From a virus (Duplodnaviria; Heunggongvirae; Uroviricota; Caudoviricetes): a stretch of DNA of 33,994 nt. The position numbers were made by a program, and so were the translations under genes. The notes beneath the pieces were generated by a model. It worked only from the letters and a program-made list of their open reading frames with translations, made no database searches and was not told the origin of the DNA. Below, piece by piece: positions 22,423-29,834 of this stretch. Within the stretch, counting starts at the first letter, position 1, and each line of letters begins with the position of its first letter. The stretch lies in IMG/VR virus record IMGVR_UViG_2585427621_000012; one strand, given 5' to 3'.

Positions 22423-23456
22423 TGAGCAAGAAAAAAGGGAAAACACCGCAACCTGCGGCAAAAAAAATGACCGCCAGCGCCCCGAAAATGGAGGCATTCA
22501 CCTTTGGTGAACCGGTGCCGGTACTCGACCGCCGTGACATTCTGGATTACGTCGAGTGCATCAGTAACGGCAGATGGTATGAGCCACCGGTCAGCTTTAC
22601 CGGTCTGGCAAAAAGCCTGCGTGCTGCCGTACATCACAGCTCACCGATTTACGTCAAACGTAATATTCTGGCTTCAACGTTTATTCCGCACCCGTGGCTT
22701 TCCCAGCAGGATTTCAGCCGCTTTGTGCTGGATTTTCTGGTGTTCGGTAATGCGTTTCTGGAAAAGCGTTACAGCACCACCGGTAAGGTCATCAGACTGG
22801 AAACCTCACCGGCAAAATATACCCGCCGTGGCGTGGAGGAGGATGTTTACTGGTGGGTGCCGTCCTTCAACGAGCCGACAGCCTTCGCGCCCGGCTCCGT
22901 GTTTCACCTGCTGGAGCCGGATATTAATCAGGAGCTGTACGGCCTGCCGGAATATCTCAGCGCCCTTAATTCTGCCTGGCTGAATGAGTCGGCCACGCTG
23001 TTCCGCCGCAAGTATTACGAAAACGGCGCTCATGCCGGATATATCATGTACGTCACCGATGCCGTGCAGGATCGCAACGATATCGAAATGCTTCGCGAAA
23101 ACATGGTCAAGTCGAAAGGCCGCAACAACTTTAAAAATCTGTTTCTCTATGCCCCGCAGGGGAAAGCCGACGGCATTAAAATTATCCCGCTCAGTGAAGT
23201 GGCAACGAAGGACGATTTTTTTAATATCAAAAAAGCCAGCGCCGCTGACCTGCTGGACGCGCACCGCATCCCCTTTCAGTTGATGGGCGGCAAGCCGGAG
23301 AACGTCGGGTCGCTGGGTGATATTGAGAAAGTGGCAAAGGTCTTTGTCCGCAATGAGCTTATCCCGCTACAGGACAGGATCCGCGAGATAAACGGCTGGC
23401 TCGGTCAGGAGGTCATCCGCTTTAAAAACTACTCACTGGACACTGACAACGGCTGA
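22422..23456 (+). CDS. Q: Portal protein gpQ
   Basis: 344-aa ORF, P2 Q size; start overlaps the P stop. Confidence 0.9.
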   Translation: MSKKKGKTPQPAAKKMTASAPKMEAFTFGEPVPVLDRRDILDYVECISNGRWYEPPVSFTGLAKSLRAAVHHSSPIYVKRNILASTFIPHPWLSQQDFSRFVLDFLVFGNAFLEKRYSTTGKVIRLETSPAKYTRRGVEEDVYWWVPSFNEPTAFAPGSVFHLLEPDINQELYGLPEYLSALNSAWLNESATLFRRKYYENGAHAGYIMYVTDAVQDRNDIEMLRENMVKSKGRNNFKNLFLYAPQGKADGIKIIPLSEVATKDDFFNIKKASAADLLDAHRIPFQLMGGKPENVGSLGDIEKVAKVFVRNELIPLQDRIREINGWLGQEVIRFKNYSLDTDNG

Positions 23457-23461
23457 ACATC

Positions 23462-23483
23462 GCCGCCTGCGGGCGGCTTTTTT
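23462..23483 (+). terminator. Rho-independent terminator after Q
   Basis: GCCGCC-tgcg-GGCGGC hairpin followed by TTTTTT. Confidence 0.6.
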
Positions 23484-23625
23484 ACACCCCGTCATCACGC
23501 CCTCACACGCTCACCACCGCACAAAACACCCCGCAGACACACCAACGCCTCAACGGGCAGACTAAGCGCCATCACGACGCGCTCAGACGCTGAAAAAATA
23601 AAATCAGCACCACCGCCAGCGCGCA

Positions 23626-23644
23626 GTGCTTTCCCCGCCTCGCC
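23626..23644. other. cos site (19-nt cohesive end, GGCGAGGCGGGGAAAGCAC on the minus strand)
   Basis: Reverse complement of 23626-23644 equals the remembered P2 cohesive-end sequence; flanking sequence toward Q matches the remembered P2 left end. Confidence 0.75.
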
Positions 23645-23773
23645 CGCCCGCTTCATGTGGCGATTTTAATGCGGTTGCATTTTTATCGAAAGTCTCGTCT
23701 CACAAATCCCTCCCTTCACTAAATAGACTCATTATCCACATGCAATCTAATTCAAAAAAATGCATGTATAGTA

Positions 23774-25744
23774 TTAAAGGTCATCAATTAAACCTAAAGG
23801 CAAACCGTCCTCACCAACCGAGCTATAATGAGCGATAATATTCGAAAGTTCACCAGTAGAAAACGAATTAGGCAAATCATTATCAACTAATATAATCTGG
23901 CACGGAACATTTTTTCTTTCTGCTTTTTGAACTGTATTCAATAGTTGTTCATAAATATTTTGATACTTCATCGGATCTGACATTCCCTCAAGGTCATCCT
24001 CGAATGCAAGAGTTTCTTTTGAATATTTTTCCTTGGTCTGTTTCCCTAAATATTTGCCAACCGTATCAAATATCAAAAGTAAAGGATGGTTAACATTATG
24101 ATCTATTGCATAATCAAGAATAGACAAAAGATACCCAATAGAAGAAATAGTTCTCAAACCTCCGGATGTTATTTTAAAATATTCTTTTTCTCTTATAACA
24201 GGAATGTAATAGCTTTCAGAGATTTTTATCCCCGTTCTGTTTTTGATATTAATACCCTTCAAATACTGACTAAATCTATCACCCAAACCTTGTAAAATGC
24301 CCTCCATGCTAGGTGCGTTTTTCTTTAACGCCTCCAAGCGTTCAGTTAATGCTTCAATATCTTTTCTCAGTACCTGATACTTTTCAAGCAGTTCCTCTTG
24401 CTGGTTTCTAACCTTCAAATCTTTTACTAACTGCTCCCTAACCTTCTCATTTTTTGAGATCTCTTTAATATAAAAATCTCTCTGAGTCAAGAATGGTGTA
24501 ATCATTGACTGGCTTTCTTCGTCAATCAATTCTCTCAACTCGTCAAGTCGTTCATCTAATTCCTTTTTATAACCTGATTCTTTTTTTAATTTAAATGACA
24601 TTTCTGAGATCATGTCATTAATATTTCGTCTACGTCGACTAAGTGAATTCAACTCTTCATTAAGATCTTTTTCTGATGAAATTTCAAATGGAAAATCAGA
24701 ATCATCTATTTTAATGTGGCTATCACAGACTGGACAGGAAAATACTTCCTTATCCAATACACCAATGCGAGAATTTGCTGTTTTAATCGCTTTGAGTTTT
24801 TCAATATCATTATCATAGTCATTTTTTAACCGCGAATATTTATCAATCTTATCCTCAAGCGCAGTAATATTTAATATGCACTCTTTGTATTTAAGCGAAA
24901 TAAAATTGTGAGCATCTTTCAATTCTGTATACTGTATGGAATCCGCTTTCATATTTTTATCGAGAGCAGACAAACCTGCAACAAGTTCTTCTAAAACAAG
25001 ATCTATCCTATTAATCTCATCATCAATTGATTCAATCGTTTCATAGTCTGTATCGCGAAGAAATTCAGATATTATCTGATACTTCCTATTTAATTCCGTT
25101 ACTAAACTACTTTTTGCAGATATTTCACCTTGGAGTCTGGCGATGCTTTCATCCAACACATTGAACATGTATTTAAAAACTTCTTTCGTAAATGCGTAGC
25201 GGGACCAATCACCCAATCGCAAGAAAGATTTACTACCAATATCATCCTGACTTACATAAACAAATTTATATATATTTCTAAAACTTAACCTGCGCATCTG
25301 TGAATGAGCTTTAGAAGGAGACACCTTAATTTCAATCTTTGGAAAATTAAGACTATCAAGTAAAAACTCCGAAAAAACACCATCAACATTTGATAATGGG
25401 CTATAATTAGGAGCGTATTTTTTCGGAAAATGTTTATGTAAATCATCAAACTTACAACGATAAACTTCTATTGCTTTTTTATGATCATAGATATCTCTTA
25501 CGATTGTGAATACAGTATCATTGATCACTACTTCAAGAGCAGCATAGTTTACTGATGTTTTTATTTCATCTGCTAAATCTATAGAGCTAGCACCTAAAAG
25601 ATAATTAATAAACTCCAGAATGCTTGACTTACCTGTGTCAGAGTCTCCGTAGATAACATTGAGACCTTTATAAAAAGTAGTGACGTAGTTTTTACGAACG
25701 CCAACAAGAATCAAACTATTGATATTGAGATATGATTTCATCAT
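23774..25744 (-). CDS. Rad50/SbcC/SMC-like ABC ATPase with coiled coil and CxxC zinc hook (candidate defence ATPase, LmuB-like)
   Basis: 656 aa; Walker A GDSDTGKSS near the N-terminus; long low-complexity charged, helical middle with CPVCD at about residue 336; C-terminal signature-like TSGG, Walker B LLLIFD, and ILVDND; AT-rich codon usage. Confidence 0.7.
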   Translation of the reverse strand: MMKSYLNINSLILVGVRKNYVTTFYKGLNVIYGDSDTGKSSILEFINYLLGASSIDLADEIKTSVNYAALEVVINDTVFTIVRDIYDHKKAIEVYRCKFDDLHKHFPKKYAPNYSPLSNVDGVFSEFLLDSLNFPKIEIKVSPSKAHSQMRRLSFRNIYKFVYVSQDDIGSKSFLRLGDWSRYAFTKEVFKYMFNVLDESIARLQGEISAKSSLVTELNRKYQIISEFLRDTDYETIESIDDEINRIDLVLEELVAGLSALDKNMKADSIQYTELKDAHNFISLKYKECILNITALEDKIDKYSRLKNDYDNDIEKLKAIKTANSRIGVLDKEVFSCPVCDSHIKIDDSDFPFEISSEKDLNEELNSLSRRRRNINDMISEMSFKLKKESGYKKELDERLDELRELIDEESQSMITPFLTQRDFYIKEISKNEKVREQLVKDLKVRNQQEELLEKYQVLRKDIEALTERLEALKKNAPSMEGILQGLGDRFSQYLKGINIKNRTGIKISESYYIPVIREKEYFKITSGGLRTISSIGYLLSILDYAIDHNVNHPLLLIFDTVGKYLGKQTKEKYSKETLAFEDDLEGMSDPMKYQNIYEQLLNTVQKAERKNVPCQIILVDNDLPNSFSTGELSNIIAHYSSVGEDGLPLGLIDDL

Positions 25745-25853
25745 TTCTCCTTGAAGACTTGATTTATAACAGAGTTTAACTTAGAGGTAGGCAATGCTTG
25801 TAGCGGTAACAATGCTTCGGATAGTCGTTTTATTTCTTTAAAATATCCATCAG

Positions 25854-26252
25854 TCAATGAGCTAGCAAATTCCTTACCTTTTTCAGATAAAAATAATTTA
25901 ACACTCTCATTATTTTTTTCTCAGCTGAGAGCAATCCCCGCAATGACATAATTTTTATAAGATATTTCACTTTGGAATTGTCGAATAAGATATCTACATT
26001 TGTTGAAAAACTCTTTATTGTATAAGTTAACTGGGACTCGACACAAGCAGGCTTTTTCCCCGAAACTGTAAGAGCATAATCAATTTTTGATGGGTTTTTT
26101 ATCAGATACATAAAAATTTGTATTTTATTAATATCTAATGATAACACTCCTTTTTTGCTATGAGATAATATAGATATAGCAATGGCAAGCATAGCAAAAT
26201 TCAAGCTATACTCTTCATCAAGAGGAATATACGGCAAGTTATTTTTCTTCAT
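25854..26252 (-). CDS. Small middle-component protein of the three-gene module; as sequenced 132 aa, possibly about 170 aa if a frameshift at an A7 run is resolved
   Basis: ORF between the hydrolase and ATPase genes; a second open frame (25741-25912, ...SVKLFLSEKGKEFASSLTDGYFKEIKRLSEALLPLQ...) continues to a TGA overlapping the ATPase ATG. Confidence 0.55.
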   Translation of the reverse strand: MKKNNLPYIPLDEEYSLNFAMLAIAISILSHSKKGVLSLDINKIQIFMYLIKNPSKIDYALTVSGKKPACVESQLTYTIKSFSTNVDILFDNSKVKYLIKIMSLRGLLSAEKKIMRVLNYFYLKKVRNLLAH

Positions 26253-27462
26253 GATTACCTCGCCGTAATTGCTCCAAAGTTTCTACGCTGGTTTCAGATG
26301 ACCAGACAATATCCCTGTCATTTTTGTTAGCCAGTTGATGCAACATTCCTTTCTTATGTATCGTTTCTAAACTTTTTATAAGAGAATCTAACGACGACTT
26401 ATCCTCTTGGGCTATTCGTCTATGAACAGCAGCAATAAATTTATCTGGGGAAATTGAATTCGCGATATATTGCTCATACTCTTCCTGGTAAATCTCCCTT
26501 ATTTTAGAATACAAATGACCAAGTAGTTTCCTATCGTAATCACTCGTAAAAATATTTCTCGCAAGCTCAGCATTATAATAATATTCCTTTGCATGCATAG
26601 CGATATCCTGATGTATATCTGCGACAATCATTTTTAAGACGAAATACTCATTATCATATTGTTTCTCATCAGAAAAACGCTCAACACATATCTTCTTGGG
26701 TGCTTCTAAATTTATCTGCTGAATAAATTGCTTTACCGCAACAAACACTGTAGACGAGCTGTTTTCGGGCTTGCAAATTGAGCTATGCCCTTCATTAACT
26801 GCAATTGAGTTATTTCGTTCACTATCCATCGGTAATGCGCTTTTTTTATCAACTATAGTGTCATGAGAACCATAAACATATCTAGTGATAGGAAGTTTTT
26901 TGCTACAATTTATCCAGCGCCTATTCAACGTATCGGTCGCTTCACTTAACAATCCAAGATCTACTAACTGAGCATTTGAAGATACCATTGAAGTTATATT
27001 CGCCAATTTAGCACCAAAGTGAGGGACTGCTAACGAAATGAATCCAATTATATTAGATTGTTCCTCATGCTCAACTTTTTTTAGAATTAGATTTTTTGAT
27101 ATTACCCCCCCCATACTATGGGCGATTATTATAATTCGAGAGTAATCACTTAGCGTTACCCTAATCTCAGTATACAATAACTCAGCTATTTCATCAGTTG
27201 GTAAATTTCTCTCTAACTTATTTTTCTTAGAGAAAATACGAGCCCATAATCCTGACGTTTTAGCATACGTTTGTGTAAATTTGGTGAAATAATTGAAACA
27301 TGCAATATCAAATACATTGCCAATGTCTTCATCTTCTGCTAATAGTTTTGGAAATGAAGTTTCTTTATTAAAGTTCCATGTTTCCAAACCACCATTTAAT
27401 CCATGTACAAATAGTATCAGGCTATCTTTTTTCTCGTGGCTTATCCATTCAACCATGCTCAT
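26239..27462 (-). CDS. Lipase-like alpha/beta-hydrolase (serine hydrolase) with C-terminal helical domain (candidate effector, LmuA-like)
   Basis: 407 aa; oxyanion-hole motif LILFVHGLNG, nucleophile elbow AHSMGG (AxSxG), downstream GSHDT (Asp) and NEGHSS (His) consistent with a Ser-Asp-His triad; about 170-aa helical C-terminus; AT-rich. Confidence 0.7.
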   Translation of the reverse strand: MSMVEWISHEKKDSLILFVHGLNGGLETWNFNKETSFPKLLAEDEDIGNVFDIACFNYFTKFTQTYAKTSGLWARIFSKKNKLERNLPTDEIAELLYTEIRVTLSDYSRIIIIAHSMGGVISKNLILKKVEHEEQSNIIGFISLAVPHFGAKLANITSMVSSNAQLVDLGLLSEATDTLNRRWINCSKKLPITRYVYGSHDTIVDKKSALPMDSERNNSIAVNEGHSSICKPENSSSTVFVAVKQFIQQINLEAPKKICVERFSDEKQYDNEYFVLKMIVADIHQDIAMHAKEYYYNAELARNIFTSDYDRKLLGHLYSKIREIYQEEYEQYIANSISPDKFIAAVHRRIAQEDKSSLDSLIKSLETIHKKGMLHQLANKNDRDIVWSSETSVETLEQLRRGNHEEK

Positions 27463-27551
27463 ATGCTTTTCTGCCGTGTATAAAAATTAAACTATAACAA
27501 ACAATTCCTCAACAATAACATATTGTTACCCCGTTTGACCGTTTTTTTCAA

Positions 27552-29834
27552 CTACCACTCACGCTGTCTGTCAAAAAAGTCGATATCGTTATCAAATTTA
27601 AAACGCTTATGCCCAAAATCCAAAACAGCTCCGCGAGCGAGAGCTTCAAGCTCCCAATAACTAGCCTGAATGTCACTTTGTGCAAGAAGAACCTTAATTT
27701 TCGGGATAGTCTTTCTCTCCTGCCTTGTCAACCGGGCGGATGGGGCAGGAAAGTAGCTTCGACCATTGAAAGGGGTAAAGCTCTGCTGTGAACGATTACT
27801 GCATTTCAGTTCATTACTCAATAAGTCTCTAAGTACCTTCATAATGCCTGGCTCGGTCCAACTTAGAATCCCTTCATCTATTAAATTTAACACCGCTGCA
27901 GCATGCTCAGTCGGTGTGGGAGCCGGTAACGAAGTATCACCACCGGTGAGTTTTCCACAGTTATTGACAGGACTCCGAGGCGCGGCGATGCCGCTTTTTA
28001 AAGTCAAAGGCTCAACGACCGGAACTTTCGGCACAATGCGCCAGTCCGTCGTTCTGGTGATATGAATATGACGCGCGCCGAGATGCGGCGCGTAAATGCC
28101 GACCACTCTCTCGACTTCTTCCTCGTACTCGTTAACGTCATCCGACGGGCTACGGGCGACCCTGACAGTCTGACAATCGCGCGGGACATTTGCCCCACCC
28201 TGCGCGCTGATATACAACGCAAAATCACCACTGTCTGCGGCAGCGCGAGCAGCCTCGACGCGTTCGTCAAACTCATCAGCAATACTGACGCCGCGAGGCA
28301 ATTTGCGTAGTTCACGGTAAGCCCCCATTGTCGGCAGTCCAACCGTTTTAAATTGCGGAATGCGCCACGTTGACGCCCATGCGGTAACAGCCGCGGCAGT
28401 ATCTTTAAGCGGCTTACCGGTATCGTTATCGAGCTGACCATCCAGTGCATAGCCGTCGATGTTTTTTGAAATGTATTTCGCGATATATCCCGCAGCACCG
28501 CCCCGGTTAAGGTGTTTTGCCTGAAAACGGTTTCGCGCAGCTCCTCTTTCGTCTCCATCCTCTTTGAGCGCGTAGCGACGCATGATTTCGATAATCTGGT
28601 TACGCTGGCGTGGATTACAAAAAAGCATCATATGCCAGTGCGGCGTTCCGTCGTGGTGTGGCTCGACGACACGCAAACCGTAGACCTGTAAATCATTATC
28701 CTTGAATGCCGTGCGCATCAGGCTCCAGATGCGGCAGAGATAACGCTGCGCATCCTTTGGATTAAATGCCTCATCGTTCCAGCCGTGATTAAGCTGAACG
28801 GTTTTACTTTCGCCTTTTCTGACCTGACGTGTCGGGTGATACTTTGACGGCGCGGTCAGCGTGATAAACATCCCCACATCACCCTCTGCGGCGGCGTAAC
28901 GCTCAATACCGGCAATGGTGTTCATCAGCTCCATCCGGCGAATTTCAGGATTAGAAATACTGCCCATCACCTTACTGATAAGGTCGATGCGCTCGCCGGT
29001 TTCCCTGTTTTCAAGGTCACACGATTTAAGAAATTCCAGATTTGCCTGGCGGCGCGCACGCACATCACGAATGGCGTGTTTACTGGCATAAGGAGAACGG
29101 TCTTTATTGACCTCCCCGACAGCTATCAGTAACGCTTCATGCCAGCGCATACGCTGGCCTTTAAGCTGATGAGTCCACCACTCATCGTTAAACAGACGGG
29201 CAATGGCAGAATATGCCTGCCTCGTGGTCATCTGCCCTTTACGGTATATTTTCCAGTAGAGAGGGGAAATATTGAAAGCACGTGCAGCGCCAGCAACATG
29301 ACCATAGAGGTGAGCCTGCGCCTCATCCGTAAACAGCGATTCTTTTTCGCCATGCGCATCCACCCAGGCATCACTGAGTTCCCCATACATCATGAAAAGC
29401 TGCGATGAGATACGGGCAGCAAACTTTTTCAGCTCCTTGTCATTCATTCCCGGCAGGCGCGCATAGTGGTCACGCTCTGCCAGAAACAGTAACGACGCGT
29501 CGGTGTTCATTTCATGGCGCTGATTCACACGCTCAATGCGCGGCCATAAACGACGCTGAAAAGTGGATGTGAGGAAATAAAACCCGTGCACCGGGCTTTT
29601 ATTGCGCCGGATGTGGTCATAGCGTGAAGTAAACAGCGAGCGCAAAAAGTAAGGCAGGCGGTTAATCGTGGATAAAACACCTTGCACCTGACGCATCTCG
29701 TCACGTGTAAGGGGTCTTTCGCGCCCGACGGCCTCGCGTGGCGCGTTCCATGCATAAGCACCGGTAAACGCCTTACCGGTGCCTGCAGCAAATGCTGACG
29801 GAGGGACAAAACGCCCGGAGGCTTTAACGGCCAT
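27552..29834 (-). CDS. A: Replication initiation protein gpA (rolling-circle nickase)
   Basis: About 760 aa, recognised as P2 gpA (...GFYFLTSTFQRRLWPRIERVN...HDGTPHWHMMLF...); start chosen at MAVKASG (ATG 29834) for the smaller overlap with the upstream ORF; the track start at 29876 is an alternative. Confidence 0.8.
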   Translation of the reverse strand: MAVKASGRFVPPSAFAAGTGKAFTGAYAWNAPREAVGRERPLTRDEMRQVQGVLSTINRLPYFLRSLFTSRYDHIRRNKSPVHGFYFLTSTFQRRLWPRIERVNQRHEMNTDASLLFLAERDHYARLPGMNDKELKKFAARISSQLFMMYGELSDAWVDAHGEKESLFTDEAQAHLYGHVAGAARAFNISPLYWKIYRKGQMTTRQAYSAIARLFNDEWWTHQLKGQRMRWHEALLIAVGEVNKDRSPYASKHAIRDVRARRQANLEFLKSCDLENRETGERIDLISKVMGSISNPEIRRMELMNTIAGIERYAAAEGDVGMFITLTAPSKYHPTRQVRKGESKTVQLNHGWNDEAFNPKDAQRYLCRIWSLMRTAFKDNDLQVYGLRVVEPHHDGTPHWHMMLFCNPRQRNQIIEIMRRYALKEDGDERGAARNRFQAKHLNRGGAAGYIAKYISKNIDGYALDGQLDNDTGKPLKDTAAAVTAWASTWRIPQFKTVGLPTMGAYRELRKLPRGVSIADEFDERVEAARAAADSGDFALYISAQGGANVPRDCQTVRVARSPSDDVNEYEEEVERVVGIYAPHLGARHIHITRTTDWRIVPKVPVVEPLTLKSGIAAPRSPVNNCGKLTGGDTSLPAPTPTEHAAAVLNLIDEGILSWTEPGIMKVLRDLLSNELKCSNRSQQSFTPFNGRSYFPAPSARLTRQERKTIPKIKVLLAQSDIQASYWELEALARGAVLDFGHKRFKFDNDIDFFDRQREW

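Follow-up and report, generated by a model that had tools for sequence, protein, structure and literature searches.

Lamassu systems and the prophage cassette

Millman et al. extended the Lamassu defense systems to LmuA effectors whose domains were given as 'hydrolase, protease and monooxygenase', showed that a system works only with its ATPase site, its effector site and lmuC in place, and pointed to members within the prophage hotspots that Rousset et al. had described (10.1101/2022.05.11.491447). In the 'short' type, LmuB averages about 600 amino acids, contains 0-2 zinc hooks and has a Walker B motif of the form hhhhD[Q/S/T/E] (PMC12663957). The C-terminal domains (CTDs) of LmuA are family-specific and are designated CTD1-12. 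In Escherichia coli, 'Lamassu Ec-Lipase', a short system of clade H with a zinc hook, protects against lambda-vir (Haudiquet et al. 2025 PNAS, PMC12663957). Here these systems are compared with a locus in the window, the whole 33,994-nucleotide stretch of IMG/VR record IMGVR_UViG_2585427621_000012, in which the gene at 26239-27462 is almost certainly the lmuA of a Lamassu system.

One minus-strand open reading frame (ORF), 407 codons and a stop, takes up exactly the interval 26239-27462, with its ATG at 27462. The 407-residue product matches the PADLOC LmuA profile PDLC03851 over residues 3-406 (E 3.5e-108) and consists of an alpha/beta-hydrolase effector domain (about residues 1-255, 26698-27462) and a helical C-terminal domain, CTD8 (residues 265-389, 26296-26670). 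Two more minus-strand genes complete the operon in the order A-C-B. The lmuC gene (25854-26252), which overlaps the lmuA stop by 14 nucleotides, encodes the middle component 4 (MC4) protein, 132 residues long here (PADLOC LmuC 4.9e-34, Pfam MC4 1.9e-16), and lmuB (23774-25744) encodes a 656-residue Rad50/SMC-like ATPase sensor (PADLOC LmuB PDLC03862, E 1.5e-235). The preliminary description of this DNA had taken the first gene for the effector of an ATPase-based defense system, and the PADLOC matches of all three genes bear this out. It had overlooked the Lamassu or ABC-three-component (ABC-3C) identity of the system, the published prophage hotspot in which it lies and a frameshift in lmuC.

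The LmuB sequence contains a Walker A motif, GDSDTGKS, at residues 33-40 (Gx4GK[ST]), an SGG signature at residues 527-529 and a Walker B motif, LLIFDT, at residues 556-561, which is the hhhhD[Q/S/T/E] variant. A single CxxC (C337-P-V-C340) forms the zinc hook in the middle of the coiled coil, and the matches to SMC_N, Rad50 and ASRP are weak. The Rad50/SMC-like LmuB, its variant Walker B and CxxC, the placement of LmuC between A and B, and an LmuA composed of an effector and a CTD are all features of short Lamassu; an intact LmuC of about 170 residues, with its stop overlapping the lmuB start, is absent from the window. In Pseudomonas aeruginosa and in Flavobacteriaceae, LmuA homologues with 42-43% identity lie in the same A-C-B operon, again with an MC4 protein of about 170 residues.

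The window is a P2-like prophage with genes for capsid, terminase, portal, replication endonuclease A, cox, repressor and integrase, inserted beside yegR. The cassette occupies the whole interval from the portal gene Q, which ends at 23456, to gene A, which starts at 27552; its guanine-cytosine (GC) content is 33%, that of the remaining window 53%. In P2, this Q-A (cos-proximal) site holds old and tin and has been described as a reservoir of anti-phage systems (PMC9122126). The hotspot arrangement 'DUF676/PGAP1 + hypothetical + hypothetical', reported with WP_000063136 (Rousset et al. 2022, PMC9122126), refers to the same effector: WP_000063136 is the RefSeq accession of the LmuA of E. coli O157:H7 TW14359, the gene of which is base-for-base identical to lmuA of the window. 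The locus is read, with good confidence, as a short-type Lamassu (ABC-3C) system, lmuA-lmuC-lmuB, with a lipase-type effector, which a P2-like E. coli prophage carries in its Q-A hotspot as cargo of low GC content.

The whole 4.1-kb cassette differs by one base from that of TW14359 and of numerous further O157:H7 genomes. Of 5,426 complete E. coli genomes, 95 have it, in the Q-A site in every copy inspected, and at least 1000 public contigs carry LmuA in exactly this sequence. RefSeq names its genes 'ABC-three component system protein', the annotation carried by the identical LmuA in O157:H7, 'middle component 4', and 'AAA family ATPase' or 'SMC family protein'. Neither the gene and its family nor the location and the type of effector are new: RefSeq, Pfam and PADLOC recognize the cassette, and the published papers cover systems of this kind. 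A tblastn search with LmuA against 50,697 deposited phage genomes returned no match, and at the DNA level no deposited phage record covers the cassette. Deposited P2-like phages match just about 224 nucleotides between the portal gene and lmuB (23457-23680), at 93-97% identity. In the plasmid collection, the copies of LmuA are all distant, at 55% identity or less. In P. aeruginosa CP199231.1 (1-8747), the 43%-identical operon stands by genes for an OLD-type AAA_15/TOPRIM ATPase, a Fic/DUF4172 protein and a NERD/zinc-ribbon protein, a neighborhood that looks like a defense island.

The hydrolase domain and CTD8

The N-terminal domain of LmuA carries the motifs of a serine hydrolase, each located where the preliminary description had put it. 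The oxyanion-hole motif His20-Gly21 (27400-27405) lies within FVHGLNG (residues 18-24, 27391-27411), and the nucleophile elbow AHSMGG (residues 114-119, 27106-27123) contains Ser116, encoded at 27115-27117. The acid of the predicted triad, Asp201 (26860-26862), is situated within GSHDT (residues 198-202, 26857-26871), and the base, His226 (26785-26787), within NEGHSS (residues 223-228, 26779-26796). The sequence AHSMG is also the elbow of the Bacillus true lipases, subfamilies I.4 and I.5 in the classification of Arpigny and Jaeger.

A database search recovered 194 relatives of LmuA at E <=1e-5, of which 109 homologues, 39-94% identical to the window protein, were aligned (mean column identity 57%). 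Against this background, H20, G21, S116, D201 and H226 are each invariant in 109/109 homologues, as are H115, G118 and G119. An S-L-A-V-P-H-x-G motif at about residues 141-150 (about 27019-27042 of the window), following strand beta-6, is equally invariant. Asp52 is likewise as invariant as the triad. Motifs related to P-H-x-G are found in BlEst2 and Bst1, and the counterpart in RavL is P-F-N-G. Four Pfam families score above their curated cut-offs, with the hydrolase match covering residues 10-208: DUF676, 'putative serine esterase' (36.7 bits against 20.3), PGAP1 (30.6 against 24.3), Abhydrolase_1 (26.7 against 25.8) and LCAT (22.2 against 21). Because the motif set is invariant in 109 homologues and four Pfam families lie above their thresholds, it is not a chance occurrence. 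On these sequence grounds, LmuA is very likely a catalytically competent serine hydrolase with a predicted Ser116-Asp201-His226 triad.

An AlphaFold2 model of LmuA, built on the homologue alignment, has a mean predicted local distance difference test (pLDDT) score of 72.6. The hydrolase core is mostly above 85, with dips to 67-78 near residues 21-30 and 201-220, and two insertions, at residues 61-85 and 150-171, are of low confidence, the latter occupying the usual position of a lid after strand beta-6. In the model, the strand at residues 14-19 leads into His20-Gly21, as for the oxyanion motif after beta-3, and the strand at residues 109-115, Ser116 and the helix at residues 117-132 form an Sm-x-Ser-x-Sm elbow after beta-5. 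Asp201 is positioned in the loop after the strand at residues 192-198 (the acid after beta-7) and His226 in the loop after the strand at residues 219-222 (the histidine after beta-8), giving the order Ser-Asp-His. The N-terminal domain is thus modeled as a canonical alpha/beta-hydrolase. The preliminary description had staked its reading on this fold, and both the model and the fold comparison return it; alignment, model and Pfam agree on an N-terminal half in which a lipase-like AxSxG elbow, the oxyanion HG and the Asp and His all occupy canonical places.

The nearest solved sequences, those of lipid-acting enzymes, provide the sequence-level support for an action on lipids. With the LmuA family profile, the PDB sequences matched are RavL (3.9e-7, spanning the Ser, Asp and His motifs), BlEst2 (3.6e-5), the glycosylphosphatidylinositol (GPI) inositol deacylase Bst1/PGAP1 (0.017) and the lysosomal phospholipase A2, LPLA2 (0.023), together with LCAT and PlaB. 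In the profile alignment with RavL (7x2p), Asp201 and His226 of LmuA pair with the Asp and His motifs of RavL. By fold, the neighbors of LmuA are esterases, thioesterases and lipases alike. The BFVD library of viral folds yields just generic alpha/beta-hydrolases of giant viruses and phages.

LmuA is a cytosolic, two-domain protein, in which neither a transmembrane segment (maximum 19-residue hydropathy 1.42) nor a signal peptide was found. A secreted or membrane lipase is ruled out, as LmuA has no hydrophobic segment. A phospholipase of the patatin or PLD type is likewise rejected, since neither family is matched in Pfam (for patatin, at E up to 0.1) and the fold is a canonical alpha/beta-hydrolase; so is a peptidase, S33 being matched only below threshold.

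The C-terminal part of LmuA is a separate all-helical domain, as the preliminary description had proposed: it matches CTD8 (PF20284, E 1.7e-35) and in the model consists of helices only, at residues 272-400. The further suggestion that this domain docks to the ATPase stands in part. CTD8 is a predicted, family-specific docking domain; in the solved Lamassu complexes, however, the LmuA CTD contacts the coiled coil and zinc-hook region of LmuB together with LmuC, and not the ATPase heads (10.1101/2025.03.14.643221). The same preprint, from the Gruber laboratory, places predicted-lipase LmuAs in the CTD8 and CTD9 families, predicts dimers and higher cyclic oligomers for them, and proposes that activation by liberation and oligomerization is possible for lipase effectors (10.1101/2025.03.14.643221). 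By analogy with the solved complexes, CTD8 of the window protein is predicted to be a docking and oligomerization module.

The lmuC frameshift and alternative readings

The lmuC gene of the window differs from its relatives by the loss of one base. At 25913-25919 it has only seven consecutive T (A7 on the coding strand), against eight in TW14359. The shift of frame causes LmuC to diverge after residue 113 and to end at 132 residues instead of 170. The remainder of the gene, out of frame at 25741-25912 on the minus strand, would encode residues 114-170, its stop overlapping the start of lmuB (ATGA); in the window, this coupling is replaced by a gap of 109 nucleotides. Insertion of one T in silico at 25913-25919 restores the 170-residue LmuC. 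Of the 95 complete genomes of E. coli in which the cassette occurs, 94 have an intact lmuC and one has the short run; on public contigs, the 132-residue form is found 48 times against at least 1000 for the form of 170 residues. The C-terminal segment that is lost, 57 residues long, is conserved in the Pseudomonas and Flavobacteriaceae homologues, and the Pfam MC4 match (residues 29-112) survives in the truncated protein. The run of seven T may reflect a sequencing error in the homopolymer or a true mutation, inactivating (a pseudogene) or due to slippage. Owing to the frameshift, it is doubtful that the system is functional as it stands in the window.

Several points weigh against a working defense system with a lipid-directed effector, among them the truncation of lmuC in the window; deletion of lmuC abolishes defense in other Lamassu systems (10.1101/2022.05.11.491447). 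The lone published test of this P2-hotspot allele is also negative: pFR106, 'Hydrolase + SMC', cloned from E. coli REL606, gave no defense against eight phages (PMC9122126, Table S2B) and appears in the table of systems tested and not validated (PMC9122126). The validated Ec-Lipase is a different protein by its residue numbering, with His215 and Lys42 against His226 and Lys39 here. With regard to chemistry, thioesterases, dehalogenases and peroxidases score nearly equal as fold neighbors of LmuA, so the chemistry is not fixed by the fold, and a literature search returned no reported substrate for any lipase-type LmuA. CTD8 reaches moderate confidence in the full model and a poor mean pLDDT of 54 when modeled alone (residues 256-407, family alignment); sequence and profile searches of the PDB detect no similarity between CTD8 and solved LmuA chains.

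The negative result with pFR106 is confounded and says little on the intact system, because lmuC of REL606 is itself split. In REL606 (NC_012967.1; 2501-3015 of the examined stretch), an insertion of two nucleotides divides the gene into ORFs of 50 and 121 residues, and the published table gives a 50-residue LmuC for this strain (PMC9122126). The lesion is distinct from that in the window, where one nucleotide is deleted further downstream. Other B strains, such as ATCC 11303, have an unsplit lmuC of 513 nucleotides.

The cassette of the window may be decaying or switched off, a reading that is given nearly an even chance. A real one-base deletion in the A8 tract would remove the C-terminal 57 residues of LmuC together with the lmuC-lmuB coupling, and LmuA, its triad intact, would be neither properly held nor triggered, so that no defense would result. 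The rarity of the short run among complete genomes, its recurrence nevertheless on 48 public contigs, the conservation across phyla of the lost segment, the requirement for lmuC in other systems and the independent disruption in REL606 all point in this direction, as does the loss of Ec-Lipase defense in mutants of the A-C and B-C interfaces (PMC12663957). On the other side, a one-base difference in homopolymer length is a classic assembly error, the MC4 match is kept in the truncated LmuC, and some Lamassu clades are reported to be without LmuC altogether. This reading concerns the state of the locus and not the identity of the gene, and is therefore compatible with a lipase-type Lamassu as the best explanation of the cassette. 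It is extremely improbable, by comparison, that lmuA is a prophage 'moron', a lipase or esterase unrelated to defense (a lysis accessory, virulence factor or metabolic enzyme) that merely lies beside an ATPase gene. Its being prophage cargo in a pathogen (O157:H7) and the failure of the REL606 allele to defend (PMC9122126) would fit such a role; against it, LmuA bears the ABC-3C-specific CTD8 and has neither a signal peptide nor a transmembrane segment, all three genes have very strong PADLOC matches, the A-C-B operon is kept from Gammaproteobacteria to Flavobacteriaceae in defense islands, and the related E. coli system, Ec-Lipase, is a validated defense (PMC12663957).

Within a Lamassu reading, the substrate of LmuA can be assigned with less assurance. 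An ester of a membrane lipid, in line with the phospholipase-type effector considered in the preliminary description, is slightly favored, judging from the families matched, the estimate being held down because the structure comes as near to thioesterases and other esterases and the literature search gave no substrate. Alternatively, the same Lamassu effector may act on a target other than membrane phospholipid, an ester, thioester or amide such as acyl-acyl carrier protein (acyl-ACP) or acyl-coenzyme A (acyl-CoA), an acyl chain of a lipoprotein or of lipopolysaccharide (LPS), a small metabolite or a peptide bond, with arrest through metabolic rather than membrane damage. The breadth of the fold neighbors is consistent with such targets. 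All family matches above threshold at the sequence level, in contrast, are lipid-acyl hydrolases (DUF676, PGAP1 and LCAT; RavL, BlEst2, Bst1, LPLA2 and PlaB), and the elbow AHSMG is that of the Bacillus true lipases; a non-phospholipid target is accordingly regarded as rather unlikely. Two further suggestions, taken jointly, are a long shot. Instead of simply dissolving the membrane, LmuA may strip a single, specific acyl group from its target (a lipoprotein, LPS or lipid A, an acyl carrier, or a lipid that the phage needs), being switched on by CTD8-driven oligomerization, and the A8 tract of lmuC may be a slippage-prone on/off switch with which the prophage silences a self-toxic system. Were the former true, SMC-based immunity would gain a so far undescribed effector chemistry; the latter would fit the separate disruption of lmuC in REL606 and, if true, would explain the published negative test.

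A promoter-like site, TTGAAA-18-AACAAT, lies upstream of lmuA at 27522-27551 on the minus strand, and a terminator-like hairpin lies downstream of lmuB at 23607-23622 on the same strand; both are weak and come from consensus scans, in which the region has no more sites than shuffled sequence. A perfect inverted repeat of 7 nucleotides, AACAATA/TATTGTT, 3 nucleotides apart (27511-27527), overlaps the -10-like hexamer of this lone lmuA promoter-like site and may be an operator or fortuitous.

Proposed action and relation to known systems

By analogy with solved relatives, one LmuA would be kept inactive by the binding of its CTD to the hook region and folded coiled coils of an LmuB dimer, together with LmuC. 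LmuB would sense phage DNA ends or replication intermediates, upon which LmuA would be released, self-associate through CTD8 and become an active serine hydrolase. Active LmuA is proposed to kill or arrest the cell, amounting to abortive infection; if, as the matched families suggest, the likeliest substrate is the acyl esters of membrane lipids, activation would then damage the membrane. The value of these results lies mainly in annotation: an O157:H7-type P2 prophage carries a Lamassu with a serine hydrolase, not a nuclease, as its killing subunit, and the predicted catalytic residues are now placed at Ser116, Asp201 and His226, with His20-Gly21 as the oxyanion motif. What a lipase-type Lamassu effector hydrolyzes, and how the phage is stopped, is a question already posed in the literature and is not made more testable here. 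As the copy in the window is also broken in lmuC, the A8 allele, with its LmuC of 170 residues, is the one to clone.

Among hydrolases, BlEst2 of B. licheniformis (6wpx) and the Legionella proteins RavL (7x2p) and PlaB (6zth) resemble LmuA in fold, HG motif, elbow, PHxG motif and the order of Asp and His. Yeast Bst1/PGAP1 (8k9r) and LPLA2/LCAT (4x90) likewise share the fold, HG, the Sm-x-S-x-Sm elbow, PHxG and the Asp/His order. These lipid-acyl hydrolases are, however, 14-19% identical to LmuA and lack CTD8, and none belongs to an SMC-based system; their substrates vary and therefore do not define that of LmuA. In immunity, CapV, the patatin-like phospholipase effector of CBASS, offers the same concept, an immune sensor turning on a membrane-destroying lipid hydrolase. 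CapV has a patatin fold and a Ser-Asp dyad and is activated by a cyclic nucleotide, whereas the fold of LmuA differs and release from an SMC complex would take the place of the cyclic nucleotide.

A hydrolase module similar to that of LmuA is found on plasmid pB of B. cereus (NZ_CP115305.1, 3959-7960), at the N-terminus of WP_170924507.1, a NACHT/STAND NTPase of 1333 residues with a DUF676 hydrolase. The two modules are 31% identical over 277 residues (E 3e-24) and have FVHGL, HSMGG, LAVP and EGHxSICK in common, but their scaffolds differ, a STAND NTPase within one polypeptide against an SMC complex. The B. cereus gene adjoins a nucleotidyltransferase-HEPN pair. Reuse of a DUF676-type hydrolase in SMC-based and NLR-like scaffolds is typical of a portable immune effector.

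Of the Lamassu systems themselves, pFR106 has the same three genes at the same gpQ-gpA locus, and its LmuA and LmuB are 97.2% and 97.7% identical to those of the window over their first 399 residues, which is what the published table shows. Ec-Lipase shares the E. coli LmuA-LmuC-LmuB trio, a lipase-type LmuA and a zinc-hook LmuB. In that system, LmuB K42A or LmuA H215A abolishes defense, H215A alone removes the toxicity of overexpression, and 7 of 9 mutants of the predicted A-B, B-C, A-C and DNA interfaces lose activity (PMC12663957). His226 of the window protein is presumably the counterpart of H215. That work establishes that the catalytic His is needed for defense and toxicity, not what is hydrolyzed (PMC12663957). 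The DdmABC/Lamassu Vc-Cap4 and Salmonella LmuACB complexes, solved by cryo-electron microscopy (for example 9NY5 and 9HQU), are alike in architecture and presumably in control logic, although sequence and profile searches of the PDB gave no significant Lamassu chain for LmuA, and LmuB matches 9hqu only marginally (E 0.057). In conclusion, these solved systems and the window differ in the effector, a DNA-degrading Cap4 nuclease in the former and a serine hydrolase in the latter.

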